Shown: positions 2,573 through 21,592, numbered from the stretch's first letter. The stretch: DNA of 64,000 nt from a virus (IMGVR_UViG_3300024344_003081), one strand, 5' to 3'. The notes: generated by a model not told the origin, from the letters alone. A program made the numbers and translations.

Positions 2573-3115
2573 ATGTCTAGTGAACAACAGGGTGAACATG
2601 CAAAAAATGTAGATGCTCTTTTTAATGAAGAAAGAGGAGCCTGTTATAGAAAAATTTCAGATTCACCATGGTGGTCTGATTTAGATTTTGAAAGCGAACA
2701 AGATGAAGATTTAATGTTTATTGAACTTTGGTCTTCAGTAGTTACTAATGAACACTATAAAGCATATAGAGTGATAACTTCACAAGGTATAGAAGATGAT
2801 GATCCAGAAAGAGAAAATTTAATAAAAGAATTTAGTGAACCAGGTCCAGATTTTGTTCATCCAAGCGTTTTTGTTAGAGGAAGAATATTAAATGATTTTG
2901 AATCATTATCTGTTAAATATGGAGAAGACACATTCGAAACTTATATAAAAAAATTGTATAATGATTATCCCGTGCCTGAAGATCAAGAAACTTTAAATTG
3001 GGTTACAGAAAATAATAAAAATCCTGATTTTTTACTTAATCATAAATGGAAGATTTTATCTGAATTATTGAGTTCAATTCATAATTATTGTGCGAATAAA
3101 GGAATATCATTATGA
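2573..3115 (+). CDS. Hypothetical acidic protein (180 aa)
   Basis: ORF with purine-rich RBS-like upstream sequence; ATGA overlap with the next gene. Confidence 0.7.
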   Translation: MSSEQQGEHAKNVDALFNEERGACYRKISDSPWWSDLDFESEQDEDLMFIELWSSVVTNEHYKAYRVITSQGIEDDDPERENLIKEFSEPGPDFVHPSVFVRGRILNDFESLSVKYGEDTFETYIKKLYNDYPVPEDQETLNWVTENNKNPDFLLNHKWKILSELLSSIHNYCANKGISL

Positions 3116-3696
3116 CTCAAACTGAAAGAATGCGTGTTTTTAAAAAGGCTTGGGTAAAAACAATTGAAAGAACATTGTATTCTCCGAATATTTCAGCAAA
3201 TGCTATAGGAGCTGGTATGTTTCTAGGTGAAGTTTCTATGCAATTATTTCCAGATAATAATTTAACTGAAAAATTAGACTTTTCTGTTGGGGAAAAATAT
3301 GTTGATATGAGATCATTAAAGCACGATATAATTAATTTGACAGGATCAGAAATAATTCCTTTTACAAGTGCAAATGATTTAACTGAATCTATGCGTGGAT
3401 CTAGTGCATTATATCTTCATGGTGAGAATTCTAGATTACTTAAAAAATTAGGAACTCAAATTAATGCATGTGTTCATTTAGGCAATGGTTATTTTATTGA
3501 TAATATGACAGGTAGTTCATTTACTTGGGATGGATATAAATATGATAATGAATTTGAACCTAGATTATTATGGTGGACAAAGATTCATTATAATCCAACA
3601 ATACATATAAATGGTATGTATTGTAGGCCTAACAATTTAGGAGATAATAATGATGAAATTGTGTGGAGAGATTTTTGGGATGGAATATGCCCTTAG
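3112..3696 (+). CDS. Hypothetical protein (194 aa)
   Basis: ORF coupled to neighbours; no recognised motif. Confidence 0.7.
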   Translation: MTQTERMRVFKKAWVKTIERTLYSPNISANAIGAGMFLGEVSMQLFPDNNLTEKLDFSVGEKYVDMRSLKHDIINLTGSEIIPFTSANDLTESMRGSSALYLHGENSRLLKKLGTQINACVHLGNGYFIDNMTGSSFTWDGYKYDNEFEPRLLWWTKIHYNPTIHINGMYCRPNNLGDNNDEIVWRDFWDGICP

Positions 3697-4067
3697 ATCC
3701 TGAAAATAAACTAGAAATAATAGTAAATTTAAGTGTAGCAAATAATGCGTTTGTTATTACAAGTGATATTGAACCTGTTCCTGATATGACTTTTTTTGAT
3801 CATATTAGAATATTTTCTGATCATTTGACTGGTTGGGTAGAACCCAAATCGGATAATTCACATAAATTAGATTTAACTCTTACGAGTAATAATTATTCGA
3901 TTCCCAAATATGTATCTTGCGGAGGACAATGGGGCGAAGCACATTATTGGCATTTTGAATTTAATAATTCAATATATCATGATGTAATAACTATATTAGA
4001 CAATAATAATATTTCATATACAGAAGTGTCAAATACAACTCCTGTGCATGTACGATTGAAATCTTAG
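3687..4067 (+). CDS. Hypothetical protein (~126 aa)
   Basis: ATG at 3687 overlaps the previous stop; more plausible than the track start at 3663. Confidence 0.65.
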   Translation: MPLDPENKLEIIVNLSVANNAFVITSDIEPVPDMTFFDHIRIFSDHLTGWVEPKSDNSHKLDLTLTSNNYSIPKYVSCGGQWGEAHYWHFEFNNSIYHDVITILDNNNISYTEVSNTTPVHVRLKS

Positions 4068-4074
4068 GAATTAT

Positions 4075-4668
4075 ATGGCTGGACCCTTAGCATGTCCTAC
4101 AAATTTGACTAATCTTGCTTCTCAATTAAATGATTTAGTTGAGCAGTCTGATATTAATACAATGAGAACTTCTATCAATGATGAATTGACTAGAAGATCC
4201 ATAACTAATGAAACTTGGGATCCTTATGCCGATCCAATCGCCGCATCAATATTTGATGAAATACAACTCGCAGTTGAATATAATTTAGGAGGAACTACAC
4301 CAACAACAGGTGTACCAATTCAACCAACTGTTTCTGCAGGTGATCTAATTTTAGCATCTCAAATTGAAACGTTAGAATCTAATCTTGATGAATGGAAAGT
4401 TTTATGCGTATGCAATTGTAATTTCTGTCCATGTAATTGTGACTTTTGTCCTTGTAACTGTGATTTCTGCCCATGTAATTGTGACTTTTGTCCTTGTAAC
4501 TGTAATTTTTGTCCGTGTAATTGTAACTTTTGCCCATGTAATTGCAATTTTTGTCCATGTAACTGTAATTTCTGTCCTTGTAACTGTAATTTCTGTCCTT
4601 GCAACTGTAACTTTTGCCCTTGTAATTGTAACTTCTGTCCGTGTAACTGTAACTTCGGTCCAAAATAG
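4075..4668 (+). CDS. Cys-rich repeat protein, putative radical-SAM substrate (RiPP-like precursor or virion protein): ~110-aa N-domain plus 12 x C-[V/P]-C-N-C-[N/D]-F
   Basis: Translation shows 12 heptads with 36 Cys; lies 10 nt upstream of a radical SAM/SPASM gene; SD-like AGGA upstream. Confidence 0.75.
   Translation: MAGPLACPTNLTNLASQLNDLVEQSDINTMRTSINDELTRRSITNETWDPYADPIAASIFDEIQLAVEYNLGGTTPTTGVPIQPTVSAGDLILASQIETLESNLDEWKVLCVCNCNFCPCNCDFCPCNCDFCPCNCDFCPCNCNFCPCNCNFCPCNCNFCPCNCNFCPCNCNFCPCNCNFCPCNCNFCPCNCNFGPK
4405..4656 (+). repeat. 21-bp coding tandem repeat, 12 copies, synonymously diversified
   Basis: 252 nt = 12 x 21; differences mostly at third codon positions (tgt/tgc, aat/aac, ttt/ttc, cca/cct/ccg). 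Confidence 0.95.
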
Positions 4669-4677
4669 AGAAATAAT

Positions 4678-5964
4678 ATGACTCAATCACACAACTTAGA
4701 AACTGTAGCTCCAAATCAAATGTATACACCACCAAGTACAGGGTGGTCTCCTCCACAACAGCAACAGAAGAATAATGGAGGAATGCCTGGCTTTAATCCA
4801 ATGCAGAGTTTTAATTTCGATGTAAACGTAACAAGTGAATGTAATCTTGCTTGTACTTACTGTTCAGAAGGAGAATCTTGTGGTCTTTCTTCTGCTTTTC
4901 AAGAGCCCACAGAAATGACTCCTGTGCAAGTAGTTGAAGCAGTAAGAACCTTAGATTATAACAAATATAAAGATGTAAATGTTTATTGGTGGGGAGGAGA
5001 ACCTTTTGCCAATTTTCATTTTACAAGTACTTGTATGAAATTATTGAAAGATGATAAAAAAGTTAATTTCATGTATTATACAAATGGTACTTATCTGAAA
5101 AAATATAAAAAACAACTTAAAGGTATTAGAGATATGCTTGGTAAGAGAATTGATTATCCTTGGCAAGATAGATTACATATACAAATTTCTTTTGATGGTG
5201 AGCCTATTAATACAAAAGAAAGAAGAACAAAAAAAGGCGAAAGTAAAAAATTATCGGCATCTGTTCTTAAAATATATGATGAGTTGAAAAAAGATGGATT
5301 TTCTGTAGGAATGAAACCTACTATCTCATCACGAAATTTTAAATATCTTTTTGAAGTTTGGAAGTGGCATCATGATCGAGGAGAACATTATGGACCTACT
5401 CCTGATACCCATAGTGTGGATCCAGATAGACCTGATGGCGCAGTTCCAGAAGAAGAATTTGCACAACACATGAAAGATTTAAGAGTGAATTTAATGAAAA
5501 TTGTCAAATATAGCATGGAGAATAAAATAGAATTAGCACAATCTTTTAGATGGTTTAAGAGAGAAAAACAAAATTGTTCAGCAGGAATAAATTATCTATC
5601 ATTGGATCTTGATGGTAAAACTTACCCATGTCATGGTTGTATGTATCGACAAAGGGAAGATCATCATAGAGGAGATATTAAATCTAATACTTTACAAAAA
5701 CTTGTTGATGAAACAACTGCGACATATCAATCATATTTAAATGATTTTAGAACAGATGGTACCTTAGCATGTAATAGTTGTACTGCAGATTTTTGTTTAA
5801 AATGTCCAGCGGGATCTTTTGATGCATCAGATACAAAATATCCAGAAAAAACAGTAGGTGAAAAATGGCAAGATCATACTGCAAATCATCAATTATGTAC
5901 TGTATGGAAAACCTTAGAACCCGTATCTAAAGCATATAGACAATTAACAGGACATCAATTATGA
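4678..5964 (+). CDS. Radical SAM/SPASM-domain protein #1
   Basis: CNLACTYC (CX3CX2C), WWGGEP, YTNG, QISFDG; C-terminal CSAG...DGKTYPCHGC...CNSC...CLKCPAGS...C auxiliary-cluster cysteines. Confidence 0.92.
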   Translation: MTQSHNLETVAPNQMYTPPSTGWSPPQQQQKNNGGMPGFNPMQSFNFDVNVTSECNLACTYCSEGESCGLSSAFQEPTEMTPVQVVEAVRTLDYNKYKDVNVYWWGGEPFANFHFTSTCMKLLKDDKKVNFMYYTNGTYLKKYKKQLKGIRDMLGKRIDYPWQDRLHIQISFDGEPINTKERRTKKGESKKLSASVLKIYDELKKDGFSVGMKPTISSRNFKYLFEVWKWHHDRGEHYGPTPDTHSVDPDRPDGAVPEEEFAQHMKDLRVNLMKIVKYSMENKIELAQSFRWFKREKQNCSAGINYLSLDLDGKTYPCHGCMYRQREDHHRGDIKSNTLQKLVDETTATYQSYLNDFRTDGTLACNSCTADFCLKCPAGSFDASDTKYPEKTVGEKWQDHTANHQLCTVWKTLEPVSKAYRQLTGHQL

Positions 5965-6176
5965 TAATAGGTGATCCTAAAAAGTGCCCAATAGCACTTT
6001 CTGATGGATGTACAACTTGTAGTAAAATTTATAGTGGGGAAGATAGAGTGGAATTTGGTAATTGTCAAGAAGAACCTATTAAAATTAATTTTCATATGAA
6101 ATTTAAAGATCAATTAACTGAGCAACAAAGAAAACAATCTGGTAGAGATCCTTGGAAGGAATTACAATATGCCTGA
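5961..6176 (+). CDS. Small Cys-containing hypothetical protein (71 aa)
   Basis: Overlaps both neighbours; CPIALSDGCTTC motif. Confidence 0.65.
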   Translation: MIIGDPKKCPIALSDGCTTCSKIYSGEDRVEFGNCQEEPIKINFHMKFKDQLTEQQRKQSGRDPWKELQYA

Positions 6177-7395
6177 ATATCATTTAGAAGTGTCAGTAAC
6201 AGAAAAATGTAATCTTGGTTGTCCATATTGTTATGTTGCAAATCAAGACAAATTTATGACACCTGAAGTGTTTGATAAAGCATGGCCTGAATTTATAAAG
6301 TTAGTAGATAGATCAAAGGCTGATGCTAGAGGAAGATTTCATTTAACATTTTTTGGTGGTGAACCTCTTTTAAATATGCCATTAATTAAACACGCTACAA
6401 AAAAATTAAGAGGAGGCGAACATTCTGATAGACTTCATGCATTATCAATTATTTCAAATATGACATTAATAAATGATGAGATTGCTGATTGGTTAGAAGA
6501 AAATCGAGTAGGAATAAGTTGGAGTTTTGATGGAATATCTTCAAATGAGTCTAGACCTGTAATTAAAAATATGGGAGAAAATAAAGGATATTCAAGTGTG
6601 TTTGAAATGTATAATGAAAAACAGCATTTGATTAGAAGACTGACAAAATATAGTAAGACATGTAAAGTGATGATTTTTCCTGCTAATGTTGATGCAATGA
6701 CAGAAAATTTTGAATTTTTAGTTGATTTTGGAATTCCTTGTCCAGATTTTTCTATTGTAAGAGATGATATTTGGTCTATTGATGATTTACAACATTTTAG
6801 AAGAGAGGTTAGAAGATTAGCAGATAAACAAATAGAATATCTTTCTAAAGGAATTTTAGCAGTTAATGGAATGTTTAATTTACCATTACAAGATATGTTA
6901 TTGGGTATTACTAAAAACAAGAGACCATTTGGATGTTTTGCAGGAGTGAGCGGTTCAGTTATGTCAGTAGAAGGAGAATTTTATCCATGTGCTAGATTTG
7001 GATCTAAAAAAGTTTTACCTATGAAAGGAGATGAATATAATTTTTCATATTTTCAACATATTTTTAATCCTAAAACATATAATAAATGTAAGGGGTGTGA
7101 TCTATATAAAGTATGTAATGCAGGTTGTACATATTCGCAGATAAGAAATGGAAATACACCTGTAGATTCTATTTGTGAATTATTTCATATGTACTATGAT
7201 GAAGCAATAAGAATTGTTGAAGAGTGTAAAGATTTTCCAACATTTCAAGATTATATTGGAAAATTATTTAAGGGTCGAGGAGACTTTTATACTCCTTTTG
7301 AAATAGAGGAAAAGAAAGATTTATTTTCTATGCTAGAAGTTTCACAGATGAAACATAGTGAACATCAATCATTTGTGGAATCATTACCAGCATGA
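6169..7395 (+). CDS. Radical SAM/SPASM-domain protein #2
   Basis: CNLGCPYC, FFGGEP, SFDG; SPASM CFAG...EGEFYPC...CKGC...CNAGC...C. Confidence 0.93.
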   Translation: MPEYHLEVSVTEKCNLGCPYCYVANQDKFMTPEVFDKAWPEFIKLVDRSKADARGRFHLTFFGGEPLLNMPLIKHATKKLRGGEHSDRLHALSIISNMTLINDEIADWLEENRVGISWSFDGISSNESRPVIKNMGENKGYSSVFEMYNEKQHLIRRLTKYSKTCKVMIFPANVDAMTENFEFLVDFGIPCPDFSIVRDDIWSIDDLQHFRREVRRLADKQIEYLSKGILAVNGMFNLPLQDMLLGITKNKRPFGCFAGVSGSVMSVEGEFYPCARFGSKKVLPMKGDEYNFSYFQHIFNPKTYNKCKGCDLYKVCNAGCTYSQIRNGNTPVDSICELFHMYYDEAIRIVEECKDFPTFQDYIGKLFKGRGDFYTPFEIEEKKDLFSMLEVSQMKHSEHQSFVESLPA

Positions 7396-8060
7396 TATTT
7401 GATAAACCTGTAATAGATCCAAGAGTTAACCAAGGAGATGGACCACCAAAATATATTCCTGGTCAATTATTAGATAAAAAAGATTTAACAGTATATCAAC
7501 ATAAAGATACTACAATGGTTGTTTTAGATTATGATCAAAAAATTAATGTTGATGTGATGAATGAAGTTTTATATAGAACTATAGAGGGTGGAGCAATAAG
7601 AAAAAATGAATATGTAATTATAGTATCTAAAAAACAATTAAATAGAAAAATGTTTAGAAATGTAATAGATAAAATTCTATATTCACAAGATTTGAGATAT
7701 GATTATATGTCAAGTCTTCCAAAGAATTTACATAATAATGTAATAGATTTTAAAGATACTAAAGAATTAACGGGGGACTTAAATAAATCTACATACGAAG
7801 AAGAAGGCACTTTAAGTTGGGAATTACTTAGTCCGGTTGAACAAGGTTGTATAATATTTGAACAATTTTATGGTGATGATCCTGAAATTGTCGCAGGTAA
7901 AAATATAAGTGCTGAAGAATGGATATCTGCAAATAGAAATGTTTGGCATCTTGTAGATAGAGCAACAGATGAACAGAGAAAAGAGTGGTTAGAAAAGTTC
8001 TATAGATATAAAAAAGTGTATGATACATTTCCAACCGCACCACTTATTACGGAGCCATAA
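7392..8060 (+). CDS. Hypothetical protein (222 aa)
   Basis: Coupled ORF within the rSAM cluster. Confidence 0.7.
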   Translation: MIFDKPVIDPRVNQGDGPPKYIPGQLLDKKDLTVYQHKDTTMVVLDYDQKINVDVMNEVLYRTIEGGAIRKNEYVIIVSKKQLNRKMFRNVIDKILYSQDLRYDYMSSLPKNLHNNVIDFKDTKELTGDLNKSTYEEEGTLSWELLSPVEQGCIIFEQFYGDDPEIVAGKNISAEEWISANRNVWHLVDRATDEQRKEWLEKFYRYKKVYDTFPTAPLITEP

Positions 8061-8323
8061 TGAATAAAGATGAACGAAAAGAAATTTCAGAAAAGGCGGC
8101 CCGTGAAGGTGATATCAATGCAATAATAAAACAATTGCAAGATGAAGAAACTCCTGATAAAGTTCAAGCTAGAGATAAAAATTTACTCAAGAGAAGTTTC
8201 GAATATGAATCCGGAGAAGAGGGAATAGGTCATGAGCCATTATTTAAATATAATTTAGATTTTGCAGGATTAATGAGAAATATGTCCTACATAATTAAAA
8301 AATATAAGGAAAGAAAAAAATGA
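8060..8323 (+). CDS. Hypothetical protein (87 aa)
   Basis: TAATG coupling upstream, ATGA coupling downstream. Confidence 0.65.
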   Translation: MNKDERKEISEKAAREGDINAIIKQLQDEETPDKVQARDKNLLKRSFEYESGEEGIGHEPLFKYNLDFAGLMRNMSYIIKKYKERKK

Positions 8324-9696
8324 GATCCCGTTCAGATAAAATTTGTCCAGAATTTAGTAAATTGGATGATATTATTGATTATGAAAGAGGATTGAATGAT
8401 GGAGAGAGTATATGCAAACCATATACAACCCATAAGATTCATGAATTGGCAACTATTCAGGAACAGAGTCTTGCAAAAAATCCAGATTCAAAAATTAGAG
8501 AAATTTCGAATAGAAAATTAAATGAAGTAGTAAAAGAAAATTTTGAATCTGTTTCAACAGATAGACATCGACATCGTATTGAAGATTTAAAACAGGGAAA
8601 AATAAAAACTGAAGAAGCAACTGTTAGTGAAATTTATGATAGACATTTTACACATGGAGAAAATGAAAAAACAAGAGTTGCACATGGTGGTGCAATTCAT
8701 TTATTTTATATGACAAGTCAATGTAATTTAGATTGTAATTATTGCTATCAGCATTTAGAAGGAAGACCTAAACATTTACCCGAACCTCCTTTAATAGCCA
8801 ATCTTATCGATAATATTATGGAATCAGATAGACCTGATGAACAAACTCTTTATTGTATTTTTGGTGGTGAACCTTTGATGGAATGGGAGAATTGTAGATT
8901 TTTAATGGATTATGCTTATAAATCAAAACATAATTGTCATTTTAATATAACATCAAATGGTATATTATTAAGTAAGCCTGCTTTTTTTAAAAAAGTGACC
9001 ACATATTTAGAAGAGCATCCTGAAATAAAACAAAGAGTTTCTTTTGATATTAGTTTTGATGGAGTTGGAAGTCAAGATAGAGTTTATTATTCTGGGAAAG
9101 ATTCAACTCTTGATGTATTAAAATGTTTTGGTAATATTATGGAATACAATAAAGACAAATCCCGTGAAGATCAAATACGGTGGAGATGTAGATATACTAT
9201 TCATAGATCAAATGTAATGTGTTTTGCAAAAGATATGTTTCATATAGCAACGACATATGGACCAGATAGAGTTGTAACATCTTTAGATAATAAGTGTGCA
9301 GAAGGCGAAACGCCAGAAGATGAAGCAAAAATTAAATGGTTATTAAAAGAACAAATTGATTGGCTTAGAGAAAAATGGAGAAGAAATTTAATAAATTATC
9401 CTGTGTGTAGTTTATTTTGTGATATGTGTAATTCATGTGGAGAAAAGAAAGATCATAGATTTTATTATAGTCAACAAGGTCTTGCTAGAATTCAAAATGT
9501 GAATGTAAGAGTTGGAGAAGAGTTCTTTGATTTTCCAGATGCAGATCCCGAAATAGAAAGAGAATTACCTAAAGCTGGGTTACCAAAAACAATGTTTGAT
9601 CGTTTAGGTATAGTTGATACCTTTGGTCAAGGATCTGGAACAGAACATTTACAAGAAACAAAATTTGCGGAAGACGGAAAAAGTCTTTCTTGTTAG
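8320..9696 (+). CDS. Radical SAM protein #3 with N-terminal extension and short C-terminal Cys cluster
   Basis: CNLDCNYC, IFGGEP, TSNG, ISFDG; C-terminal CSLFCDMCNSC rather than a full SPASM pattern. Confidence 0.88.
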   Translation: MRSRSDKICPEFSKLDDIIDYERGLNDGESICKPYTTHKIHELATIQEQSLAKNPDSKIREISNRKLNEVVKENFESVSTDRHRHRIEDLKQGKIKTEEATVSEIYDRHFTHGENEKTRVAHGGAIHLFYMTSQCNLDCNYCYQHLEGRPKHLPEPPLIANLIDNIMESDRPDEQTLYCIFGGEPLMEWENCRFLMDYAYKSKHNCHFNITSNGILLSKPAFFKKVTTYLEEHPEIKQRVSFDISFDGVGSQDRVYYSGKDSTLDVLKCFGNIMEYNKDKSREDQIRWRCRYTIHRSNVMCFAKDMFHIATTYGPDRVVTSLDNKCAEGETPEDEAKIKWLLKEQIDWLREKWRRNLINYPVCSLFCDMCNSCGEKKDHRFYYSQQGLARIQNVNVRVGEEFFDFPDADPEIERELPKAGLPKTMFDRLGIVDTFGQGSGTEHLQETKFAEDGKSLSC

Positions 9697-9704
9697 GAGA
9701 TATT

Positions 9705-10436
9705 ATGGCTGAAGAACATGAATTGATTAAAAAACACGCTAATGAAGCAATACAAGCATTAGTTCCATTATTAGATAATGAAAAAACACGCCATATAGGT
9801 CATGTATTATTAAAAGCAATTGACTTGGGTTTAGGTATGTTGTCAGCAGATGCTAAAGGAGAGTCTAGTGGAGCGAACAATCAAATAAGAGTAAGTGGGG
9901 CTTCTCCTCCAGGAACCGTTCCTCAAAATTTTCAGAAAGATATAGAGCAAGAAAATAAGGTACAGGGATTAGTAGATGAAACATTAAAGGAATTAGAAAT
10001 GATGGATAATCATGAATCTAATCCTGTAACTACAGACAAAGATGGTAATGAAATAGAATATGTAAAAGGAATGCTTTGTAATTGTCAATTTGCTTCTGAA
10101 TTTCACAAATACTGTGATAATCAATGTAAAGAGACTTTGATTAAAGCAGAAGGAAATCCAAAAGAATATATTAAATTTATTGATAAAGAAAGAAAAGAAC
10201 AAGATACTAAATCTCTTGATGAGGCAATGGATGAGGTTACAGGCTTTATTGATACAGAATTGGGTATTGGAGTTTCTCCTAGACCAAAACCACAACAATC
10301 ACAGCAACAAGCTCCTCAAAATGATGTACAGCAAGAAACTCCTTTAAATGAAGAAAACAAGCAATTTGCGTTAGATCCTAGTCAACCTGTTATTATGCCT
10401 GGTGAACCAACTGGACTTGAAAATGACAGTAGTTAA
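9705..10436 (+). CDS. Hypothetical acidic protein with CNC...C..QC motif
   Basis: SD AGGAGA precedes ATG 9705 (track start 9690 is TTG). Confidence 0.7.
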   Translation: MAEEHELIKKHANEAIQALVPLLDNEKTRHIGHVLLKAIDLGLGMLSADAKGESSGANNQIRVSGASPPGTVPQNFQKDIEQENKVQGLVDETLKELEMMDNHESNPVTTDKDGNEIEYVKGMLCNCQFASEFHKYCDNQCKETLIKAEGNPKEYIKFIDKERKEQDTKSLDEAMDEVTGFIDTELGIGVSPRPKPQQSQQQAPQNDVQQETPLNEENKQFALDPSQPVIMPGEPTGLENDSS

Positions 10437-10677
10437 TTTATCCTCTATTAATATTATTGCAGTTCTTACTAAGATAAAAAAATTAGAAGAAAGTAATATT
10501 TCAAATAAATATTCTCGTATAGTTGATTTATTAGATTCTACAAAATCAAGATTTGATGTTTCTCTTGATTCATATAAAAATGTGGAATTATTAGCAGATC
10601 ATATAGAATTTTCAACAACGGGCTTAATTCTTTGGCAAAGAATGAGAGATAAATATAACGACTTAGCGGACAAATGA
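10423..10677 (+). CDS. Hypothetical protein (~84 aa)
   Basis: ATG 10423; ATGA overlap with the next gene. Confidence 0.55.
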   Translation: MTVVNLSSINIIAVLTKIKKLEESNISNKYSRIVDLLDSTKSRFDVSLDSYKNVELLADHIEFSTTGLILWQRMRDKYNDLADK

Positions 10678-11657: not shown

Positions 11658-11673
11658 TATATTGAGGAATATA

Positions 11674-13168: not shown

Positions 13169-13169
13169 A

Positions 13170-13787
13170 ATGAAAAAAATGATGATAACAGGTGTGAGTT
13201 CTGGTTTAGGAAAAGCACTTTTTGAATATTATGATGGAAAATATATTCAAAAATATAAAGATGTAATAGAAGTTGAAGGTCACAGTAGAAGATATAATCA
13301 ACATGATATTCAAGACATTAAAGATTGGTTTGATCCTGAAGCAGATATTTTTATCAATAATGCATATAGTGATCTGAGATGGTGGACTCAAACGAATGCA
13401 TTATTATATTCTTTTTCAGTTTGGGCAGATAAACCCGATAAACATATTGTGTCTATAAGTTCAATTGCACAGGAAAAAGATACTGATGGATGGCCTATTG
13501 GTCATAGTAGATATTCAGTAGGAAAAATTTCTCTTGATAAAATGAATTTAGACTGTCATGAAAAAGTAGCAAAAAAACATGGATGTAAAGTTTCTAATTT
13601 AAGACTTGGTTGGGTAGAAACACCTAGAACAACAAGAATAAGTACTGTAGTAAGTCGTTTATATGATGTTGATCCTGTTAAGCAAACAACTGGAACAATG
13701 TTGAGTACAGATGAATGTATAGATGCTATAGACTTTATGTTAAATCATAGTGGAAGAGTAAGAGAAATGACATTGGAGGCAAAATGA
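13170..13787 (+). CDS. Short-chain dehydrogenase/reductase (SDR)
   Basis: ITGVSSGLG Rossmann motif, INNA, YSVGK (YxxxK). Confidence 0.88.
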   Translation: MKKMMITGVSSGLGKALFEYYDGKYIQKYKDVIEVEGHSRRYNQHDIQDIKDWFDPEADIFINNAYSDLRWWTQTNALLYSFSVWADKPDKHIVSISSIAQEKDTDGWPIGHSRYSVGKISLDKMNLDCHEKVAKKHGCKVSNLRLGWVETPRTTRISTVVSRLYDVDPVKQTTGTMLSTDECIDAIDFMLNHSGRVREMTLEAK

Positions 13788-14812
13788 GCAAGGTGTTACA
13801 AATAGCAACTAGACATCCTGAAAATGAACATCATAATAAAGATTTTGCCGCAGAATTAAAATTATGGTGGGAAGAAAAAGGATATTCGGGTAGAGTTTTT
13901 GATAGATATCTTCCATTAACGGGTGTTGAAACTCGATATGCTTGTTATAATCGAGAGGAGATGAGAGAAAAATCTCAAACGTTTACTCAAAAAAATAAAA
14001 CATTTAATGAAGTTGCTATAAAATTATCATTAGAATGTGTAAAGGAATTGGAATTTAATCCACAAGATGTTTGTATGTTAACATCAACTACTATGACAGG
14101 TGTTGGTATTCCTACGATTCCCCATACAATATTAAAAGAATTTAATTTTCCAGAATCAATGATTAAAATACCCATGTTTGGTCTAGCATGTAATGGAGGC
14201 ACTCATATTTTAGGAATAGCAAATGAATATTTAAAAGGTAATCCAGACAAGTTAGTTATAGCAATGACTAACGATTTATGTTCAATGAATTTGTGTCCTG
14301 AACATGCTACATTAACAACTGTTTTTGGATCTGTAATATTTGGTGATGGAATTAGTGCTATTTTAATTGCAGGAGATAATTATAATGATGCACCAGGATG
14401 GAAATTACATAAACATGTGTCATATGTTTTACCAGATACAGAAGATTATATTACTCTTCAAGGATTAAGTGAAGGATTATTATATCATGTAGAATCAACT
14501 AAATTGCAAGAAATACCAAAAGCATCTGCGGCATTTAATGATAAAATTAAAGAATTTATTGAAGGTCATACTATTAATAATTGGATATGTCATCCAGGAG
14601 GAAAAATTGTTTTAGAAAATACTGTAAAGGGGCTTAATTTACCTGAAGGTGCTTTGGATTCATCTTTTGAATTATTTCGAAATTTTGGAAATATGTCTGC
14701 AACTTCAGTAATAAAAACTTTACAGCATGATTTTGATAAAGATGGCAAAACAGTTATGATTTCTTATGGGCCAGGTTTTCAGGTTGATGTTATATTATTA
14801 GAAAAAATATGA
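13784..14812 (+). CDS. Type III polyketide synthase (chalcone/alkylresorcinol synthase family)
   Basis: Cys-His-Asn triad contexts GLACNGG, WICHPGGK.VL, FGNMSATSV; also FGDG and SYGPGF. Confidence 0.92.
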   Translation: MSKVLQIATRHPENEHHNKDFAAELKLWWEEKGYSGRVFDRYLPLTGVETRYACYNREEMREKSQTFTQKNKTFNEVAIKLSLECVKELEFNPQDVCMLTSTTMTGVGIPTIPHTILKEFNFPESMIKIPMFGLACNGGTHILGIANEYLKGNPDKLVIAMTNDLCSMNLCPEHATLTTVFGSVIFGDGISAILIAGDNYNDAPGWKLHKHVSYVLPDTEDYITLQGLSEGLLYHVESTKLQEIPKASAAFNDKIKEFIEGHTINNWICHPGGKIVLENTVKGLNLPEGALDSSFELFRNFGNMSATSVIKTLQHDFDKDGKTVMISYGPGFQVDVILLEKI

Positions 14813-15237
14813 TTTGGGGAAAAGATAAACACGATATTCGTAATAGAATTTTGTCGATGACAATAGAAAATGGCTTGGGTATAGATTTACAAACAATAGA
14901 ACCCATTCAAAAAATATATGATAAATGGGGTGATAAATTTGTTAATAAAATATTAACAGATATAGAAAAGAAAAATGCACCAAATCCCATAACTGCAAAA
15001 TATTTAACAAAATGTTGGTGTGTTAAAGAAGCATTTTCAAAAGCAATTGCATCTCCATATTTGAGACTCGATGTTAGTTATACACATTTAAAAGCTAGAG
15101 GAGCAAGATTTCCTGTTGTTCATTGTGTTATGGAACCCAAAGATTGGAATTTGAAACGACAAGATATTAGACTTTCTTTATCTGATACAAAAGATTATGT
15201 GGTCGCAATAGTTATTACAGGAGTTAATCCTTTGTGA
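14809..15237 (+). CDS. acpS: Holo-ACP synthase (AcpS-type 4'-phosphopantetheinyl transferase)
   Basis: GLGIDL, W.VKEAFSKA, LSLSDTKDYVVAIV motifs; ~140 aa. Confidence 0.85.
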   Translation: MIWGKDKHDIRNRILSMTIENGLGIDLQTIEPIQKIYDKWGDKFVNKILTDIEKKNAPNPITAKYLTKCWCVKEAFSKAIASPYLRLDVSYTHLKARGARFPVVHCVMEPKDWNLKRQDIRLSLSDTKDYVVAIVITGVNPL

Positions 15238-15959
15238 TAAAAACCTTAGACTATACAATCCCTTCTGAATGGAATAATAAAAATATTATTTCTAGTTTTA
15301 TTGATTCGGGATTTTTAGTAATTAATCATCCCTTCATAGATATGAAAGAAGGTTTACTTTCTTTTAAAGAAAAACTTAAAATACAATTAAACGAATTAGA
15401 AGAAACTGAAGAGGGGTATAGAAAAATTATATTAAAAAATTGTGATAATATTAAACAAAGATTTTTAAAAGTGGGATGTGAAATTTTATATGTTATTGAA
15501 GAATTTTTAAATGTTCCTCCAAATTCTATTGCAATGAAACATGCTGATTCTGATAATGCTTTGAGATTGGTTAAATATTATAAAGATCAGAAAGGATCAA
15601 TAAGAGTAGGAGAACATTGTGATTTTGGTACTTTAACACTTGTTCATGTTTGTGATCCTGTAGAAGAATATGAAATATTTTATGATGATAAATGGAGAAC
15701 AATAAATCATCCTAGTGATGATTTTTTGATTGTGAATATAGGTGATTTTATGCAGATTTGGTCAGATAATAAATTAAAATCTACTCCGCATAGAATAACG
15801 AATAAAACAAAAAAAGAAAGACACAGTATGATTATGTTTATGGATGCTGGTAATCATACTATTAAAGGAATTGATCATGCTACTTGGAATAAAAAAAGAA
15901 TACAAATGGCTCATACAGGAGTAACATATTATCATGACAAAGGTATCGTACAAATATAA
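15234..15959 (+). CDS. Fe(II)/2OG dioxygenase, isopenicillin-N-synthase-like
   Basis: LRLVKY, GEHCDFGTLTL (HxD), VNIGDFMQIWS...STPHR, RHS (RxS). Confidence 0.9.
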   Translation: MIKTLDYTIPSEWNNKNIISSFIDSGFLVINHPFIDMKEGLLSFKEKLKIQLNELEETEEGYRKIILKNCDNIKQRFLKVGCEILYVIEEFLNVPPNSIAMKHADSDNALRLVKYYKDQKGSIRVGEHCDFGTLTLVHVCDPVEEYEIFYDDKWRTINHPSDDFLIVNIGDFMQIWSDNKLKSTPHRITNKTKKERHSMIMFMDAGNHTIKGIDHATWNKKRIQMAHTGVTYYHDKGIVQI

Positions 15960-16692
15960 AGTATGGTTTTTAATATTAATGAATCATGTTCTAATGATAA
16001 TAGGAATTTATTATGCTATAACAGAATCATCATATTATTTGTTTATTGTACTGTTTATTGGACTTTTATTGAGTAAGTTGGGTGGAGAAATAGGAACTCA
16101 TAGATATCTTTCTCACCGATCTTTTAAAACTGGACCCATAAGAAATTTTATATTGCAAATTATGGGATTAATAAATTGTAATGGTTCACCTATGACTTGG
16201 GCTATATTGCATAGATATCATCATATGAATGCAGATAAGCCAGAAGAACCCCATTCTCCAAATATAATACCATGGTGGAAGTGCTGGTTGACTTTGTGGA
16301 ATCCTATATCTCCTAATCCAAAAGAGTATATGGATTTATTGAAAGATCCATTAGTTAAAAACATACACAAATATTATTTTTATATGATAATATTGATGTT
16401 TGGAATATTATATTTGTTAGACTGGAGATTACTTGTATTTTTAGTTTGTATTCCTTCTGTAATAACCTTTCATGGATCAACTTTATTAATAAATACTATT
16501 TCTCATAAATGGGGATATCGTAATTTTGATACTGATGATAATAGTAGAAATAATACGTGGATTAATTTTTTAATATGGGGAGGGGGCTTACATAATAATC
16601 ATCACGCTTATCCTGAAAGATATAATGAAAAAGTAACAGATAACGAAAGGGATCCTTGTGGCTGGATTATTGAAAAATTTTTTAAAATATAG
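15934..16692 (+). CDS. Membrane fatty-acid desaturase (Delta9-like) paralogue 1
   Basis: His boxes HRYLSH, HRYHH, HNNHH; hydrophobic segments. Confidence 0.92.
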   Translation: MTKVSYKYKVWFLILMNHVLMIIGIYYAITESSYYLFIVLFIGLLLSKLGGEIGTHRYLSHRSFKTGPIRNFILQIMGLINCNGSPMTWAILHRYHHMNADKPEEPHSPNIIPWWKCWLTLWNPISPNPKEYMDLLKDPLVKNIHKYYFYMIILMFGILYLLDWRLLVFLVCIPSVITFHGSTLLINTISHKWGYRNFDTDDNSRNNTWINFLIWGGGLHNNHHAYPERYNEKVTDNERDPCGWIIEKFFKI

Positions 16693-17452
16693 TAGTACTT
16701 GGCATACTCATTTAGGATTTCAAATATTATTTCATATTGTAGCGGCATTAGGAATTGTCTATAGTTCTTGGCATTGGTTATGGTTAAGTCTTATTGGAGT
16801 AATATTATTTCGACATATAGGGGGTGAAATAGGCGCCCATAGATATTATGCTCATAGAAGTTTTGAAGCAAAACCTTGGGCTCAAAAATTAATGATTATA
16901 TGTGGACTTTTTTTATATCAAGGATCGCCATATTCTTTTATTCCAATTCATAGATTACATCATCAAAAATCAGATACAATTGATGATCCTCATTCTCCCC
17001 ATTTTTTAAATTTTGTAAATGTGTATTTTCCTAGTGCGAACCAGTATTATCGTGAACCCGTGGATAAATCATATTTTGCAGATTTAATTAAAGATCCCGT
17101 TTTACAATTTTTACATAGAAATTATTTAATTATAGTAACTATACCATTGATTATAACAGCATTAATAGATTGGAGAATACCTGTTTTTCTATTTGCTATT
17201 CCAGTTGTAATTACATTTCATTCTGCGGGATTGGGAAATACTATAGGTCATTTATATGGATATAGAAATTTTGAAACAACTGATAAAAGTCAAAATTCTA
17301 CATGGGTGAACATATTAACTTTAGGATCAGGATTACATAATAATCATCATGCATATCCTGAAAGATATAATTATAAAATGACAAATAAATGGTATGAAAG
17401 AGATGATTTAAATGTTTTTTTAATCGAAAAATTATTAATGGAGAAAAAATGA
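16658..17452 (+). CDS. Membrane fatty-acid desaturase paralogue 2
   Basis: HRYYAH, HRLHH, HNNHH; exact start uncertain (GTG 16658 or TTG 16670). Confidence 0.92.
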   Translation: MAGLLKNFLKYSSTWHTHLGFQILFHIVAALGIVYSSWHWLWLSLIGVILFRHIGGEIGAHRYYAHRSFEAKPWAQKLMIICGLFLYQGSPYSFIPIHRLHHQKSDTIDDPHSPHFLNFVNVYFPSANQYYREPVDKSYFADLIKDPVLQFLHRNYLIIVTIPLIITALIDWRIPVFLFAIPVVITFHSAGLGNTIGHLYGYRNFETTDKSQNSTWVNILTLGSGLHNNHHAYPERYNYKMTNKWYERDDLNVFLIEKLLMEKK

Positions 17453-18219
17453 AAATCATTTCAAAATATAATAATACCTGGATGGCATATTTTGGATTTC
17501 AAATTTTATTTCATATATTAACTGTTGTTGGATTGTTATATTCATCATGGCATTGGCTGTGGTTGTCTTTAGTGGGCATTATTTTTTTCAGACATATTGG
17601 TGTAGAAATTGGCGCCCATCGATATTTTGCACATAAAAGTTTTAAAGCAAAACCTTGGGCTAAAAAATTAATGGCCATTTGTGGACTTTTTGCATATGGA
17701 GGAACACACTATGCTTGGATTCCTTTTCATAGACTACATCATCAAAAATCAGACACTAAATTGGATCCCCATTCACCACATCACATGAGTTTCATAGATG
17801 TTTATTTTACTAACTGGCGAGTTGAAGTGTTAGATGTTAAATTGTATCAAGATTTAATAGAAGATAAATTTTTACAATTTTTACATAGAAATTATTTAAT
17901 TATAGTAACTACACCATTAATTTTATTTGCATTGATAGATTGGAGAATATCTGTTTTTCTATTTGCTATTCCAAGTGCATTTGCACTTCATTCTGGGGGG
18001 CTGGTAAATTCTATAGGGCATTTATATGGATATAGAAATTTTGATGATACAAACGATAAAAGTCGAAATTCTACATGGGTGAATATACTAACTTTAGGAG
18101 AAGGTCTGCAGAATAATCATCATGCACATCCTGAAAGATATAATTTTAAAATGTCTAATAGATGGTATGAGACAGATTTTTTGAACGTTTTTCTAATAGA
18201 AAAGTTTTTAAAGGCGTGA
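17449..18219 (+). CDS. Membrane fatty-acid desaturase paralogue 3
   Basis: HRYFAH, HRLHH, QNNHH. Confidence 0.9.
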   Translation: MKIISKYNNTWMAYFGFQILFHILTVVGLLYSSWHWLWLSLVGIIFFRHIGVEIGAHRYFAHKSFKAKPWAKKLMAICGLFAYGGTHYAWIPFHRLHHQKSDTKLDPHSPHHMSFIDVYFTNWRVEVLDVKLYQDLIEDKFLQFLHRNYLIIVTTPLILFALIDWRISVFLFAIPSAFALHSGGLVNSIGHLYGYRNFDDTNDKSRNSTWVNILTLGEGLQNNHHAHPERYNFKMSNRWYETDFLNVFLIEKFLKA

Positions 18220-19082
18220 TAATGTTTAAATATGAGATGACACGAAATGCAATTATTATTGGGATGATGATTCATTTATCTTTTCATGTTTTATTAGTAT
18301 ATGGAATAATAACTTTTTCTTTACATTGGTTGTGGTTAACATTAATAGGAACCATTTTAATTCGACATATAGGAACTGAAATAGGCGCTCACAGGTATTA
18401 TACTCATCAAAGTTTTAAAGCAAATCCGTGGGCACAGTGGCTTATGTCTATTTTATTTGTATGGAATTATGGAGGTAGTATGTTAGCATGGTGTCCTGGA
18501 CACAGTTATCATCATAGATTTTCTGATAGTAAACATGATATACAATCTCCACATTATATAAAAAAATTTAAAGATTTTGTTAGAGTTGTTTTTCCTGCAG
18601 TATTCGCATATGAAAAATTATATAACGATGAAATTGATAAAATGAGAATGAAAAGATACATGGAATGGTTTCATGAAAAGAGGGGTTTTATGGAATTAAT
18701 GAAGAATAAACCAGCGAGATTTACTCATAATTATTATTGGTTGATTGTATCTCTTCCAATTATAATTTTACCAATAATTGATATTCGTTTATTAATCTTT
18801 CTTATAGCAATACCATGTGTAATTAATTTTTGGTCTTTGGCTCTACTAAATTTTTTTGGACATATTTCTACTATTGGAAGTTATAAAAATTTCGAAACTG
18901 ATGAGTGGGGTAACAAGGAACGTTCAGTTAATACTCTATGGTTAAATATATTTACTGGGGGAATGGGACTACAAAATAATCACCATCATAATTCAAGAGC
19001 CTATAATTTTAAAATGAATGATAAATGGCATGAAACAGATTTTTTGAATGTATTTTTAATAGAAAAATTTTTAAAGGTTTAA
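18216..19082 (+). CDS. Membrane fatty-acid desaturase paralogue 4
   Basis: HRYYTH, HSYHH, QNNHH. Confidence 0.9.
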   Translation: MIMFKYEMTRNAIIIGMMIHLSFHVLLVYGIITFSLHWLWLTLIGTILIRHIGTEIGAHRYYTHQSFKANPWAQWLMSILFVWNYGGSMLAWCPGHSYHHRFSDSKHDIQSPHYIKKFKDFVRVVFPAVFAYEKLYNDEIDKMRMKRYMEWFHEKRGFMELMKNKPARFTHNYYWLIVSLPIIILPIIDIRLLIFLIAIPCVINFWSLALLNFFGHISTIGSYKNFETDEWGNKERSVNTLWLNIFTGGMGLQNNHHHNSRAYNFKMNDKWHETDFLNVFLIEKFLKV

Positions 19083-19083
19083 C

Positions 19084-19923
19084 ATGTTCAAATTTACAGC
19101 AAATAGGTTTGCAGTTATTATGATTTCTATTATTCATACGTTATTTCATATATTAACTGTATATGGATTAATAACTTTTTCTTTACATTGGTTATGGTTA
19201 TCTTTTATTGGTGTTATATTATTACGACATATCGGTACAGAAATAGGAAATCATCGATATTTTTGTCATAGGAGTTTTGAAGCAAAACCTTGGGCAGAAT
19301 GGCTTATGATGATTGGATATGCATTTTCGTATGGAGGAAGTAATATAGCATATGCTATAGGTCATAGATGGCATCATGCTACATCTGATACTGAAAAAGA
19401 TCCAATTTCTCCTCATAACATTAAGAATGTTAAAGATGTTTTTAGAATTATAACTCAAACTTTAGGAGAACTTCAACAGGAAGAACGTAAAGATTGGAAT
19501 ATTTTTAGAAAAAGTGAAAATAAATTTTGTAAAAAATTATTTAAAAATAAAGTAGCAAGATTCAATCATGAATATTATTGGTTAATAGCACTTTCTCCCA
19601 TTGTAATTTTATCAATAATCGATATTCGTTTGTTAATATTTTTTATAGCATTACCTTGTGTTATAACTTTTTGGTCTGGAATGTTAGCACATTTTTTAGG
19701 ACATGTAATGTTATTTGGTTGTTATAGAAATTATGAAACTACAGTTGATGATCTATCGGTAAATAATCCATGGTTAAATATAATAACAGGAGGATTAGGA
19801 ACATTACATAATAATCATCATGCACATCCTGAAAGATATAATTATAAAATGTCTAATAGATGGTATGAGACAGATTTTCCCAATGTGTTTTTAATAGAAA
19901 AGTTTTTAAAACATGATAGATAA
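19084..19923 (+). CDS. Membrane fatty-acid desaturase paralogue 5
   Basis: HRYFCH, HRWHH, HNNHH. Confidence 0.92.
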   Translation: MFKFTANRFAVIMISIIHTLFHILTVYGLITFSLHWLWLSFIGVILLRHIGTEIGNHRYFCHRSFEAKPWAEWLMMIGYAFSYGGSNIAYAIGHRWHHATSDTEKDPISPHNIKNVKDVFRIITQTLGELQQEERKDWNIFRKSENKFCKKLFKNKVARFNHEYYWLIALSPIVILSIIDIRLLIFFIALPCVITFWSGMLAHFLGHVMLFGCYRNYETTVDDLSVNNPWLNIITGGLGTLHNNHHAHPERYNYKMSNRWYETDFPNVFLIEKFLKHDR

Positions 19924-20707
19924 CCTTAATAAATTATTTGTTAAAGATTTTCAAATTAGTATATTACAATATGTGTGGATTTATACCTTTCCTATCATAT
20001 CTGTATTGGGAATAATATATTCGTCATGGCATTGGTTGTTTTTAACATTAGTGGGTATAATTTTGTTTAAAGATATTGGAGGCGAAATAGGAGTCCATAG
20101 ATACTGGACACATAATTCATTTAAAGCGAAACCTTGGGTACCAAAATTATTTTCAATTTGTACAATTTTATGCTATGCTGGTAGTCCTCTTACTTGGTCA
20201 TATGTTCATAGACATCATCATGAGCATTCTGATACTGAAAAGGATGTACACTCTCCCCACCACAGCAAATGGTATCATATCTGGAGAGGATATTGGGATT
20301 TTTCAAAAATAGAAAAGTTTGATCCTAGATTCGTAGCAGATTTGTTGAAAGATGAATCAATAAAATTTGCACATCGATATCATTTATTAATTCAAATATG
20401 CGTAATCATAATAACTGTGTCTATAGATTGGAGAATATTTGTATTTTTATTTGCTCTTCCTAGTGCAATAACATTTTGGTTTGGATCTATAGCTGTTAAT
20501 ATGATGAGTCATTTGTGGGGATATCGTAATTTTGAAACACCTGATAATTCAAAAAATAATATACTTGCTTGTATTCTTGTTTCTTCTGGAGGATTACAAA
20601 ACAATCATCATTATAATCCTTCTTCATATAATTTTAAAATGTCAGATAGATGGTATGAACAAGATATGAAAAATGTGTTTCTTATTGAAAGATTTTTTAA
20701 AGCATGA
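19913..20707 (+). CDS. Membrane fatty-acid desaturase paralogue 6
   Basis: HRYWTH, HRHHH, QNNHH. Confidence 0.9.
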   Translation: MIDNLNKLFVKDFQISILQYVWIYTFPIISVLGIIYSSWHWLFLTLVGIILFKDIGGEIGVHRYWTHNSFKAKPWVPKLFSICTILCYAGSPLTWSYVHRHHHEHSDTEKDVHSPHHSKWYHIWRGYWDFSKIEKFDPRFVADLLKDESIKFAHRYHLLIQICVIIITVSIDWRIFVFLFALPSAITFWFGSIAVNMMSHLWGYRNFETPDNSKNNILACILVSSGGLQNNHHYNPSSYNFKMSDRWYEQDMKNVFLIERFFKA

Positions 20708-21468
20708 TTAATTATTATATTAAATCTAAGCGAACTCCCTATTTTTTCTTAATTAATTTAATTGCTCATTTAGCAATTATACCCGCAATTCTTTATGGCG
20801 AATGGTGGATGTGGATATTAAGTTTGATATGGTGGCAGTGGATAGGATGTACAGCATATACTACTGGGTATCATAGGTATTATACTCATAAAAGTTTTAA
20901 AGCACCGCTTTGGTATGATTATTATTTTAATTTTTTTTCTTTATTTGGTAATCCAGGACCAGTTCTTATATGGAGCGGAACACATAAATTACACCACAAA
21001 TATAGTGATACGGAATTAGATCCACATAGTCCTAAACATAAAGGATTTTGGAATGTGTGGACAAGTTTTTGGGGAATGGGAGTGTTTACAATAGATCCTC
21101 CTACAAGAGAAGATTTAAAAGATTGGTTAGAAGAAACAAAAGATCCTATTGCTAAATGGTTTTATGATAATTATCTTTCTTTAACAGTTATTATTATGAT
21201 TGTATTGTTATTCATGGGTCCTTGGTTTTTTATATTTGGTTTTTGTATTCCTACATGTTTAATACTTCATGGTTCGGGTATTATTAATGCATTTACTCAT
21301 AAGAATGGAAAACCAGAGAATAAAAATTTAGTGGCATTGATAACCGCTGGAGAAGGATGGCATTTGAATCATCATGAAGATCCATCTAATTATACGACAA
21401 GAAAAGAGTCGTATAAATGGTGGCAAGTTGACTTAAATGGTATATGGATCAATTTAATTAAAATATAG
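20704..21468 (+). CDS. Membrane fatty-acid desaturase paralogue 7 (closest to canonical Delta9)
   Basis: GYHRYYTH, HKLHH, GEGWHLNHH. Confidence 0.93.
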   Translation: MINYYIKSKRTPYFFLINLIAHLAIIPAILYGEWWMWILSLIWWQWIGCTAYTTGYHRYYTHKSFKAPLWYDYYFNFFSLFGNPGPVLIWSGTHKLHHKYSDTELDPHSPKHKGFWNVWTSFWGMGVFTIDPPTREDLKDWLEETKDPIAKWFYDNYLSLTVIIMIVLLFMGPWFFIFGFCIPTCLILHGSGIINAFTHKNGKPENKNLVALITAGEGWHLNHHEDPSNYTTRKESYKWWQVDLNGIWINLIKI

Positions 21469-21486
21469 GCTCGATATATATTAACA

Positions 21487-21517
21487 CCAGAGAATGGAAA
21501 CGAAAGTTCCGCTTTGG
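21487..21517 (+). other. Stem-loop with GAAA tetraloop upstream of the tRNA-like element
   Basis: CCAGAG/CTTTGG outer helix enclosing GGAAAC-GAAA-GTTCC. Confidence 0.5.
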
Positions 21518-21519
21518 AC

Positions 21520-21592
21520 AGGGGTGTAGTTTAATTAAAACGGCCAACAGGGTGTTGGGAAGTTGTGAGTGTAAATCTCGCCACCCCGACCA
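21520..21592 (+). tRNA. Non-canonical tRNA-Pro(GGG)-like RNA with encoded CCA
   Basis: Cloverleaf: acceptor AGGGGTG/CACCCCG plus A-CCA, D stem GTTT/AAAC, anticodon arm CCAA-CAGGGTG-TTGG, T stem GTGAG/CTCGC; lacks D-loop GG, U33 and TTC. Confidence 0.6.

Follow-up and report, generated by a model that had tools for sequence, protein, structure and literature searches.

Packed array of radical-SAM and lipid-type gene cassettes behind the tail-fibre gene of a T4-like marine phage

Gene content of the array

The stretch of DNA analysed here (the window) comprises 64,000 nt from a virus, IMGVR_UViG_3300024344_003081; every long open reading frame (ORF) in it lies on the + strand and its G+C content is ~30%. 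Behind a tail-fibre gene (g01), positions 2573-21468 carry a packed array of genes (g02-g27; Table 1) that includes two cassettes. Cassette A (g05-g13, 4075-10677) encodes a repeat protein, three radical S-adenosylmethionine (SAM)/SPASM maturase-like enzymes and small partner proteins. Cassette B (g14-g27, 10674-21468) encodes a helical orphan, an acyl carrier protein (ACP), a type III polyketide synthase (PKS), a phosphopantetheinyl transferase (PPTase), two oxygenases and seven desaturases.

On the 3' side of the array lie T4-type genes for a prohead protease, a scaffold protein and the major head protein (24967-28266), and PHROG and profile matches identified homologues of gp21, gp22, gp23, UvsW, gp46, gp43, gp41 and CobS in the window. 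The major head protein shares 64% identity with that of the Pelagibacter phage HTVC008M, 62-63% with those of Methylophilales phage Melnitz and Pelagibacter phage Mosig, and ~59% with those of cyanomyophages. Because the genes are of T4 type and the closest capsid protein is that of HTVC008M, the window is taken to come from a T4-like marine myophage close to the pelagimyophages, membership of that group being drawn solely from the 64% capsid-protein identity. A megablast search of window positions 1-21500 against cultured phages gave no match. Pelagimyophages carry a hypervariable host-recognition island (PMC7029224), and 2573-21468 is best read as the accessory part of this phage's hypervariable tail-fibre island.

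The radical SAM assignment of the trio g06, g08 and g11 is confirmed at the level of the superfamily, though not of a specific family. Pfam Radical_SAM is above its cut-off in all three; g06 alone has a SPASM match, whose 21.4 bits fall marginally short of the cut-off of 21.5. Their best NCBIfam matches are peptide maturases, PapB first (the best match of g06), and all fall far below the family cut-offs (for PapB, 142 vs 340 bits). The adjacent g05 has the make-up looked for in the precursor of a peptide synthesized on ribosomes and modified after translation (RiPP), a leader followed by a Cys-containing core, and is a candidate substrate of the three enzymes, which are predicted to place intramolecular thioether-type cross-links in its CxCNCN[FY] heptads. 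The small genes g12 and g13 were assigned to the radical SAM side because of their identity to the closest relative, L125 (Table 1). Pfam and PHROG searches detected no peptidase or transporter domain in g02-g30 and gave no family for g02-g04, g07, g09, g10, g12-g14 or g28-g30.

Cassette A appears to be a widespread phage module. Profile hidden Markov models placed g05-like and g10-like genes beside the radical SAM trio in 26 distant loci, and in distant contigs the trio often has a homologue of the g01 C-terminal domain ~1 kb upstream. At two such loci (L020:12685-13473 and L041:11288-11713) a CTCNCNY heptad repeat is followed by an 'SDxRLKxNI' segment, which at the first is the Pfam Peptidase_S74 (endosialidase chaperone) domain. 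This intramolecular chaperone domain is typical of tail fibres and spikes, so that in the distant phages the heptad repeat would be part of a tail-fibre or tail-spike-type protein; its presence on a g05 homologue suggests a structural protein rather than a released peptide. Genes resembling g08 also occur in Campylobacter phages (34% identity) and were set aside: in CP220 the gene stands by itself, in a different context and not accompanied by a matching trio.

In cassette B, the Cys136/His270/Asn303 triad of the PKS (g18) is invariant in three orthologues. Its best solved relative is the M. tuberculosis alpha-pyrone synthase Pks11 (2.4e-29), Pks18 and CylI being its other relatives in the PDB, and one source labels its relatives 'alkylresorcinol/alkylpyrone synthase'. 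The desaturase His boxes (HxxxxH / HxxHH / HxxHH) are invariant in all seven paralogues, five of which exceed the PF00487 cut-off; the best NCBIfam match is the DesA family, below cut-off, and we take the paralogues to be of the Δ9 (SCD/DesC) type from their motifs. Two of them, g24 and g25, have 20-30-aa insertions between His boxes 2 and 3. No sequence match in the PDB was found for the TauD-like g16. The first gene of the cassette, g14, has only 11 relatives among 1.84 billion representative proteins in a profile search; its AlphaFold2 (AF2) model gave no Foldseek match at E<=0.001 in the PDB or the AlphaFold database (AFDB) clusters, and the ESM Atlas yielded nothing usable for it. A ~65-aa segment of g14 is duplicated in the window and L125 only, and its C-terminus, AACEMLEFD, is invariant.

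Table 1. Genes, spacer and promoter motifs in and around the array (window coordinates)
Feature	Position	Strand	Remarks
g01, collagen-repeat tail-fibre gene	3..2555	+	Pfam Collagen 7e-32; phrog_5073 4.7e-36; 5' end outside window
g02-g04, three small orphan genes	2573..4067	+	no Pfam/PHROG match
TATAAATA, sole + strand copy in the region	3535..3542	+	intragenic in g03, 128 nt before longest g04 ORF
g05, repeat protein	4075..4668	+	~108-aa N-terminal part, then 12 heptads CPCNC[ND]F (translation)
g06, radical SAM/SPASM maturase-like	4678..5964	+	Pfam Radical_SAM 1.5e-13; SPASM 3e-4
g07, 71-aa Cys-containing small protein	5961..6176	+	translation
g08, radical SAM maturase-like	6169..7395	+	PapB 1.8e-41, below cut-off; most conserved of trio
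g09 (222 aa) and g10 (87 aa)	7392..8323	+	g10 accompanies trio in 26 distant loci
g11, third radical SAM enzyme	8320..9696	+	~125-aa N-terminal extension
g12 (248 aa) and g13 (91 aa)	9690..10677	+	identity to L125 93% and 87%
g14, all-helical orphan, internal duplication	10674..11657	+	AF2 pLDDT 75; first gene of lipid cassette
g15, acyl carrier protein	11674..12057	+	PP-binding 2.2e-7; probable ATG start 11674; DSI serine motif; charged C-terminal tail
g16, TauD-family Fe/2-oxoglutarate (2OG) oxygenase	12044..13168	+	Pfam TauD 8.4e-11; position varies among relatives
g17, short SDR-like protein	13170..13787	+	weak match
g18, type III polyketide synthase	13784..14812	+	Chal_sti_synt N and C (PF00195, PF02797), both above cut-off
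g19, AcpS-type phosphopantetheinyl transferase	14809..15237	+	Pfam ACPS 4.2e-11; NCBIfam acpS below cut-off
g20, 2OG-Fe(II) oxygenase	15234..15959	+	43% homologue inside radical-SAM-only island of G001
g21-g27, seven tandem membrane desaturase paralogues	15934..21468	+	His boxes HRYxxH / HRxHH / HNNHH intact
Spacer	21469..21564		96 nt; only gap >17 nt
g28-g30, rest of packed island	21565..23373	+	g28 homologues travel with radical SAM genes in G001 and L007
TATAAATA, first intergenic copy	23378..23385	+	40 nt before g31; same place in four relatives

Farther from the array, the window encodes a 715-aa protein with an N-terminal cytidylyltransferase-like domain (60507-62654) and a CobS-like ATPase (43911-45101), both typical accessory genes of marine myophages. 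ARAGORN found no tRNA in the window, and Rfam gave nothing in positions 1-26000 at E<=0.1. Weak Atlas leads for the identity of g28 (MTHFR_C/DUF6919, score 0.84-0.88) were not used.

Gene packing and transcription signals

The first-pass annotation had described the region as one run behind a tail-fibre gene in which nearly every gene overlaps or abuts the next. The tail-fibre gene is real and directly adjacent, its matches to tail-fibre PHROGs reaching E=4.7e-36, and the packing is borne out by the longest ORFs, on which the junction statistics are based. Within 2573-21468, where all genes are on the + strand, 21 of 26 junctions are at 0 nt or less (median -4, largest spacer 17 nt), compared with 18 of 48 in the rest of the window (median +5, maximum 294 nt). 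The region thus differs from its surroundings in the share of overlapping or abutting junctions (Fisher p=0.0005), in that of -4 overlaps (p=0.008) and in the distribution of junction lengths (Mann-Whitney p=0.0003). All eleven 4-nt ATGA/GTGA overlaps that had been listed (at 3112, 5961, 7392, 8320, 10674, 13784, 14809, 15234, 17449, 18216 and 20704) proved real, each exactly -4 nt between consecutive + strand ORFs. Later start codons shorten the long overlaps and never open a gap of more than 19 nt (+16 for the ACP from ATG 11674, +19 for g21 from ATG 15979). The packed run also extends past a single spacer to 23373, and in this spacer (21469-21564) there was no tRNA by ARAGORN, no Rfam match and no fold above that of shuffles (z=-0.7).

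The same annotation had found no terminator or clear promoter between the genes, and this holds for terminators and for intergenic copies of TATAAATA, the T4-type late promoter motif. The terminator scan returned four weak + strand candidates in the region, all intragenic and with 3-4 G:C pairs; counted on both strands there were seven, against 5.4+/-2.3 in shuffles, and hence no excess, so that the absence of internal terminators stands as a prediction. As a positive control, the scan recovered a strong intrinsic terminator (28293-28322, a 12-bp stem and T run) directly 3' of the gp23 gene, which is also the only convincing terminator in the first 42 kb of the window. A scan for sigma-70 promoters was uninformative, with 131 found and 132.8 expected.

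The window holds about half as many copies of TATAAATA as expected (7, against 14.8+/-4.0). Of the five on the + strand, three stand in spacers, 40-69 nt before start codons: at 23378 before g31, at 25618 before the scaffold gene and at 45118 before g56. The motif scan found no intergenic copy inside 2573-21468, the next being that at 23378. The single intragenic copy, at 3535, recurs at the same offset in the relative L016 and is absent from L125. The close relatives scanned show the same picture: their islands have neither an intergenic TATAAATA nor a recognisable internal terminator, and few of their spacers exceed 40 nt. All four relatives with the g31 junction in view carry the motif again 38-42 nt ahead of the g31 homologue, and in L016 a copy is found 27 nt before the gene that opens the packed fibre run.

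The promoter upstream of the array lies outside the window. Judging from the motif and terminator scans, the array is most probably read through as one transcript from a late promoter upstream of the tail-fibre genes; co-transcription of its genes is likely, and co-expression of the cassettes with the fibre gene is plausible. The distribution of TATAAATA further suggests that T4-type late promoters can be read in a phage group in which published attempts had failed.

Distribution and mosaic history of the two cassettes

Relatives were sought by IMG/VR scans, by searching 5.8 billion proteins and looking up the context of the matches, and in the nearest genome, G001; an alignment of all seven desaturases was too divergent for the locus search and was replaced by one of g22/g23 orthologues. 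The PKS family is tiny, comprising 20 clusters of 68-100% identity among the 5.8 billion proteins, and a wider IMG/VR scan with the PKS alignment returned the same four contigs and no more. Counting those with at least 5 kb upstream of the PKS gene gave eight contexts (the window, the L007/L134 type, L009, L124, L125, L126/L127, L128 and L129-L131). In every one, the third radical SAM gene, g12, g13, g14, ACP, SDR-like, PKS, PPTase, 2OG and desaturase genes follow in this order. The variable extras are the number of desaturases (2-7) and the presence of TauD, Rieske oxygenase, FabA-like dehydratase and Asp/Arg-hydroxylase-family genes; with seven desaturase copies the window has the most. The genes g13 and g14 are present only where both cassettes occur, and the junction between the cassettes is tight, with the ATGA overlap at 10674 in the window; in L124-L126 and L134 the two genes abut or share 1 nt. 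The orphans g02-g04 are mobile within the island and lie at its far end, just before g31, in L007 and L009.

Each chemistry was also found without the other. The 161-kb contig G001:C1 carries homologues of g31-g37 that are mostly 95-99% identical (g32, 51%), together with a tail fibre, a g05 homologue and a diverged radical SAM cassette, and no PKS or desaturase was found with window queries anywhere in the G001 assembly. The trio g06-g08-g11 was also found in ~28 further IMG/VR contigs of up to 214 kb, its gene order being kept in every contig except one, and none of them has an ACP, PKS, PPTase or desaturase gene within +/-10 kb of it. Conversely, desaturase arrays of 1-10 copies occur without the trio in ~73 contigs, 23 with an ACP and 10 with a PPTase. 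Since the trio alone and ACP/desaturase arrays alone both occur, each chemistry can be regarded as an autonomous phage cassette, and ACP-linked multi-desaturase cassettes look like a recurring, undescribed feature of phages. The expectation raised earlier, that related contigs would keep both clusters together and that independent occurrence would speak against a joint pathway, is thus answered in two ways: the PKS cassette directly follows the radical SAM cassette in all eight contexts, all from one clade, and was never found alone, but the radical SAM cassette stands alone in G001:C1 and the ~28 contigs, and ACP/PPTase/desaturase arrays stand alone in many others.

Larger lipid clusters without the trio were seen in L062, L080 and L060 (IMGVR_UViG_3300013006_001903). 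In the last, positions 222-15549 hold 10-11 desaturases, an ACP, a PPTase, a FabF-like ketosynthase instead of the PKS, a Rieske protein, and ATP-grasp and PP-loop ATPase-like genes. Inside the lipid cassette of some relatives lies a gene of the Asp/Arg-hydroxylase family (PF05118): L134:8395-9177 (exactly between g14 and the ACP), L125:11462-12007 and L128:5988-6506; the region 2573-21468 of the window has none. Possible targets of such an enzyme are the Asn/Asp-rich heptads or, as for LpxO, an acyl chain. G001 itself is filed as a 'prokaryote' genome (1.9 Mb, 60 contigs, 6% contamination) and was seen through L011 and L012; its contig C1, a near relative of the phage, may be a binning artefact or come from an infected cell, and could hint at the host.

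Comparison with L125, the closest relative, reveals a mosaic. Protein identity is 86-100% over g05-g13 (g06 99%, g08 100%, g11 98%), falls to 37-81% with differing gene content over g14-g27, and is 89-100% over g28-g36. At the nucleotide level the left breakpoint lies at ~10850-10990, inside g14, and the right one at 21464, at the end of g27, where identity returns to 98%. Because identity drops and returns at these points, the lipid cassette must have been exchanged independently of its neighbours in this pair.

Interpretation and comparison with known systems

On balance we hold it rather probable that the array consists of two cassettes that are co-transcribed but functionally separate. It would be accessory cargo of the hypervariable tail-fibre island, two evolutionarily separable cassettes having been stacked at one recombination hot spot, and the promoter-poor, terminator-free, co-directional run would be translated with much stop/start re-initiation. 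Cassette A would cross-link the g05 heptads, a repeat that distant phages appear to hold inside a tail-fibre-type protein. Cassette B would be a self-contained thiotemplated lipid pathway, in which the phage PPTase activates the phage ACP, the desaturases and Fe/2OG oxygenases modify the ACP-bound acyl chain, and the type III PKS lengthens the chain and closes it into an alkylpyrone- or alkylresorcinol-like lipid.

Several observations weigh against this reading. The PKS cassette never occurs away from the radical SAM cassette and lies directly downstream of it in all eight contexts, across radical SAM identities of 40-100%; an add-on tailoring role for cassette B would predict exactly this placement. 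The cassette boundary is not clean, as homologues of g20 and g28 lie among the radical SAM genes in G001, nor is the cassette the sole unit of exchange: identity between L124 and L126 is 94-99% but drops to 66-76% in a patch that covers the PKS and PPTase genes, and the two differ by an indel of one desaturase, which points to exchange at the level of single genes as well. Domain searches recognised no acyl-loading (FAAL, fatty acyl-AMP ligase, or acyltransferase) or release enzyme in the array, so that the lipid pathway as drawn is incomplete. Finally, promoters of pelagimyophages are poorly defined, the prediction of middle and late promoters having failed (PMC7029224), and internal early or middle promoters may therefore exist.

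The first-pass annotation had favoured convergence on one product over two unrelated morons. Cassette B would then tailor the product of cassette A, an ACP-bound desaturated or polyketide acyl group being moved to the cross-linked g05 protein to give a lipidated, thioether-braced fibre tip or a released lipopeptide. The constant adjacency agrees with this idea, cassette B following cassette A in 8/8 PKS contexts though g02-g04, TauD and 2OG genes have been rearranged, as do the tight junction between them, the restriction of the orphans g13 and g14 to loci with both cassettes, the 2OG oxygenases common to both halves, and an asymmetry (cassette A often alone, PKS-type cassette B never) that fits a base module with an add-on. 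However, the PKS contigs all belong to one phage clade, so that one acquisition, held in position by homologous recombination, may account for the eight contexts; from it adjacency and asymmetry would be equally expected. Moreover, cassette A lacks cassette B on the near-identical backbone of G001:C1, with its 97-99% identity in core genes, and in ~28 other phages, ACP/PPTase/desaturase arrays occur without cassette A, and the two halves differ in their identities to L125; this separability and these discordant histories argue against an obligate joint pathway. No enzyme that could join the two products was recognised: searches of Pfam, NCBIfam and PHROG found no GNAT, condensation, acyltransferase, ligase or thioesterase domain in any array gene, g09, g12, g13 and g28-g30 being orphans without a family, and g14, considered for this role, was rejected as an all-helical repeat without an enzyme-like fold match. 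We therefore consider a joint pathway unlikely. A bolder form of it, in which the lipid cassette is a dedicated add-on that gives the thioether-braced Cys-heptad fibre protein an ACP-made polyunsaturated or polyketide lipid, and so a lipid-anchored receptor-binding or membrane-penetrating virion part, is more doubtful still; we know of no lipid-anchored, cross-linked virion chemistry in tailed phages.

It is about as improbable as a joint pathway that the cassettes and the tail-fibre gene are expressed separately, from distinct, unrecognised promoters within coding sequence upstream (with, say, early or middle expression of the metabolic genes and late expression of the fibre), the packing being mere genome compaction. 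T4-like phages often place promoters inside upstream genes, the intragenic TATAAATA at 3535 is kept at the same offset in L016, and early expression would be expected of enzymes that have to make their product ahead of assembly; beyond the region, too, overlaps are frequent (18/48 junctions), and the failed prediction of middle and late promoters in pelagimyophages leaves room for such signals. Yet no promoter spacer and no terminator interrupts the 26 junctions, nor those of the relatives scanned; TATAAATA, under-represented overall, is otherwise employed in intergenic spacers, and the genes are packed significantly more tightly than those in the rest of the window. Two co-transcribed cassettes with separate products thus remain our preferred reading.

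Biosynthetic gene clusters are reportedly extremely rare in phage genomes derived from virions, with bacteriocins of temperate phages making up almost all known cases (bioRxiv 10.1101/2020.10.01.322628). The phage studied here, a T4-like marine phage of lytic type, has ~19 kb of packed enzyme genes for two chemistries in its host-recognition island. As the cassettes are separable, either one can be expressed and assayed on its own, and phage islands are seen to assemble natural-product-like pathways by the stacking of modules. That the radical SAM trio consistently lies beside fibre-type Cys-repeat proteins is a testable lead to enzymatically cross-linked virion fibres, and if the lipid cassette did act on g05, this would be a new type of virion modification.

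The setting resembles the host-recognition cluster of pelagimyophages and cyanomyophages, a large, non-syntenic island in the structural region with tail fibres and unrelated accessory genes (Zaragoza-Solas et al. 2020, PMC7029224). In that group radical-SAM cassettes are a difference between two similar genomes, and freshwater members carry the lipid genes fabF and stearoyl-CoA desaturase (PMC7029224). The array described here differs in its size (19 kb, 26 genes) and in having its own ACP, PPTase, type III PKS and seven desaturases, which are not described there, and the island abuts the gp21/22/23 prohead block whereas the published position is between VrlC and gp14. With radical SAM/SPASM RiPP systems, namely ranthipeptides of the PapB/freyrasin type and the CXXX-repeat family TIGR04115, cassette A shares SPASM-type C-terminal Cys motifs, best NCBIfam matches to PapB and peptide maturases, and a putative substrate with a long N-terminal part and a repetitive core of Cys plus Asn/Asp. 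Cassette A departs from those systems in that every match falls far short of its family cut-off, three maturases stand in place of one, searches found neither a protease nor an exporter nor a recognisable RiPP recognition element (RRE) domain, and distant substrate homologues are of the fibre type with Peptidase_S74.

Lipolanthines and goadvionins, fatty-acyl/PKS-RiPP hybrid lipopeptides in which an ACP-made lipid is joined to a ribosomal peptide from the same cluster, offer a precedent for a joint product; they need a dedicated acyltransferase of the GNAT type, and the array differs in having no recognisable acyltransferase. Cassette B also resembles the thiotemplated polyyne fatty-acid clusters (cay/pgn), which combine FAAL, ACP, a desaturase triad and a thioesterase and in which ACP-tethered desaturation by several desaturases is established for bacteria (PMC9828172). 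As in these clusters, a dedicated ACP is encoded with several membrane desaturases, which implies that it is an ACP-bound acyl chain that would be desaturated. The differences are that no FAAL (AMP-binding), thioesterase or rubredoxin was recognised in the array, that there are seven desaturases rather than three, joined by a type III PKS and a PPTase, and that the carrier is a phage and not a bacterium. With long-chain-primed type III PKSs, such as the M. tuberculosis alkylpyrone synthases Pks11 and Pks18 and bacterial alkylresorcinol synthases, g18 shares the Cys-His-Asn triad, Pks11 being its best solved relative, whereas the phage family forms a tight clade of 20 clusters and lies beside its own ACP and PPTase. 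Single-copy desaturases of cyanophages and pelagiphages, such as the Mosig FA_desaturase (31% identical), likewise belong to PF00487 and share the Δ9-type His boxes, but these are thought to remodel host membrane lipids, whereas here seven tandem paralogues are encoded together with an ACP, a PPTase and a PKS.

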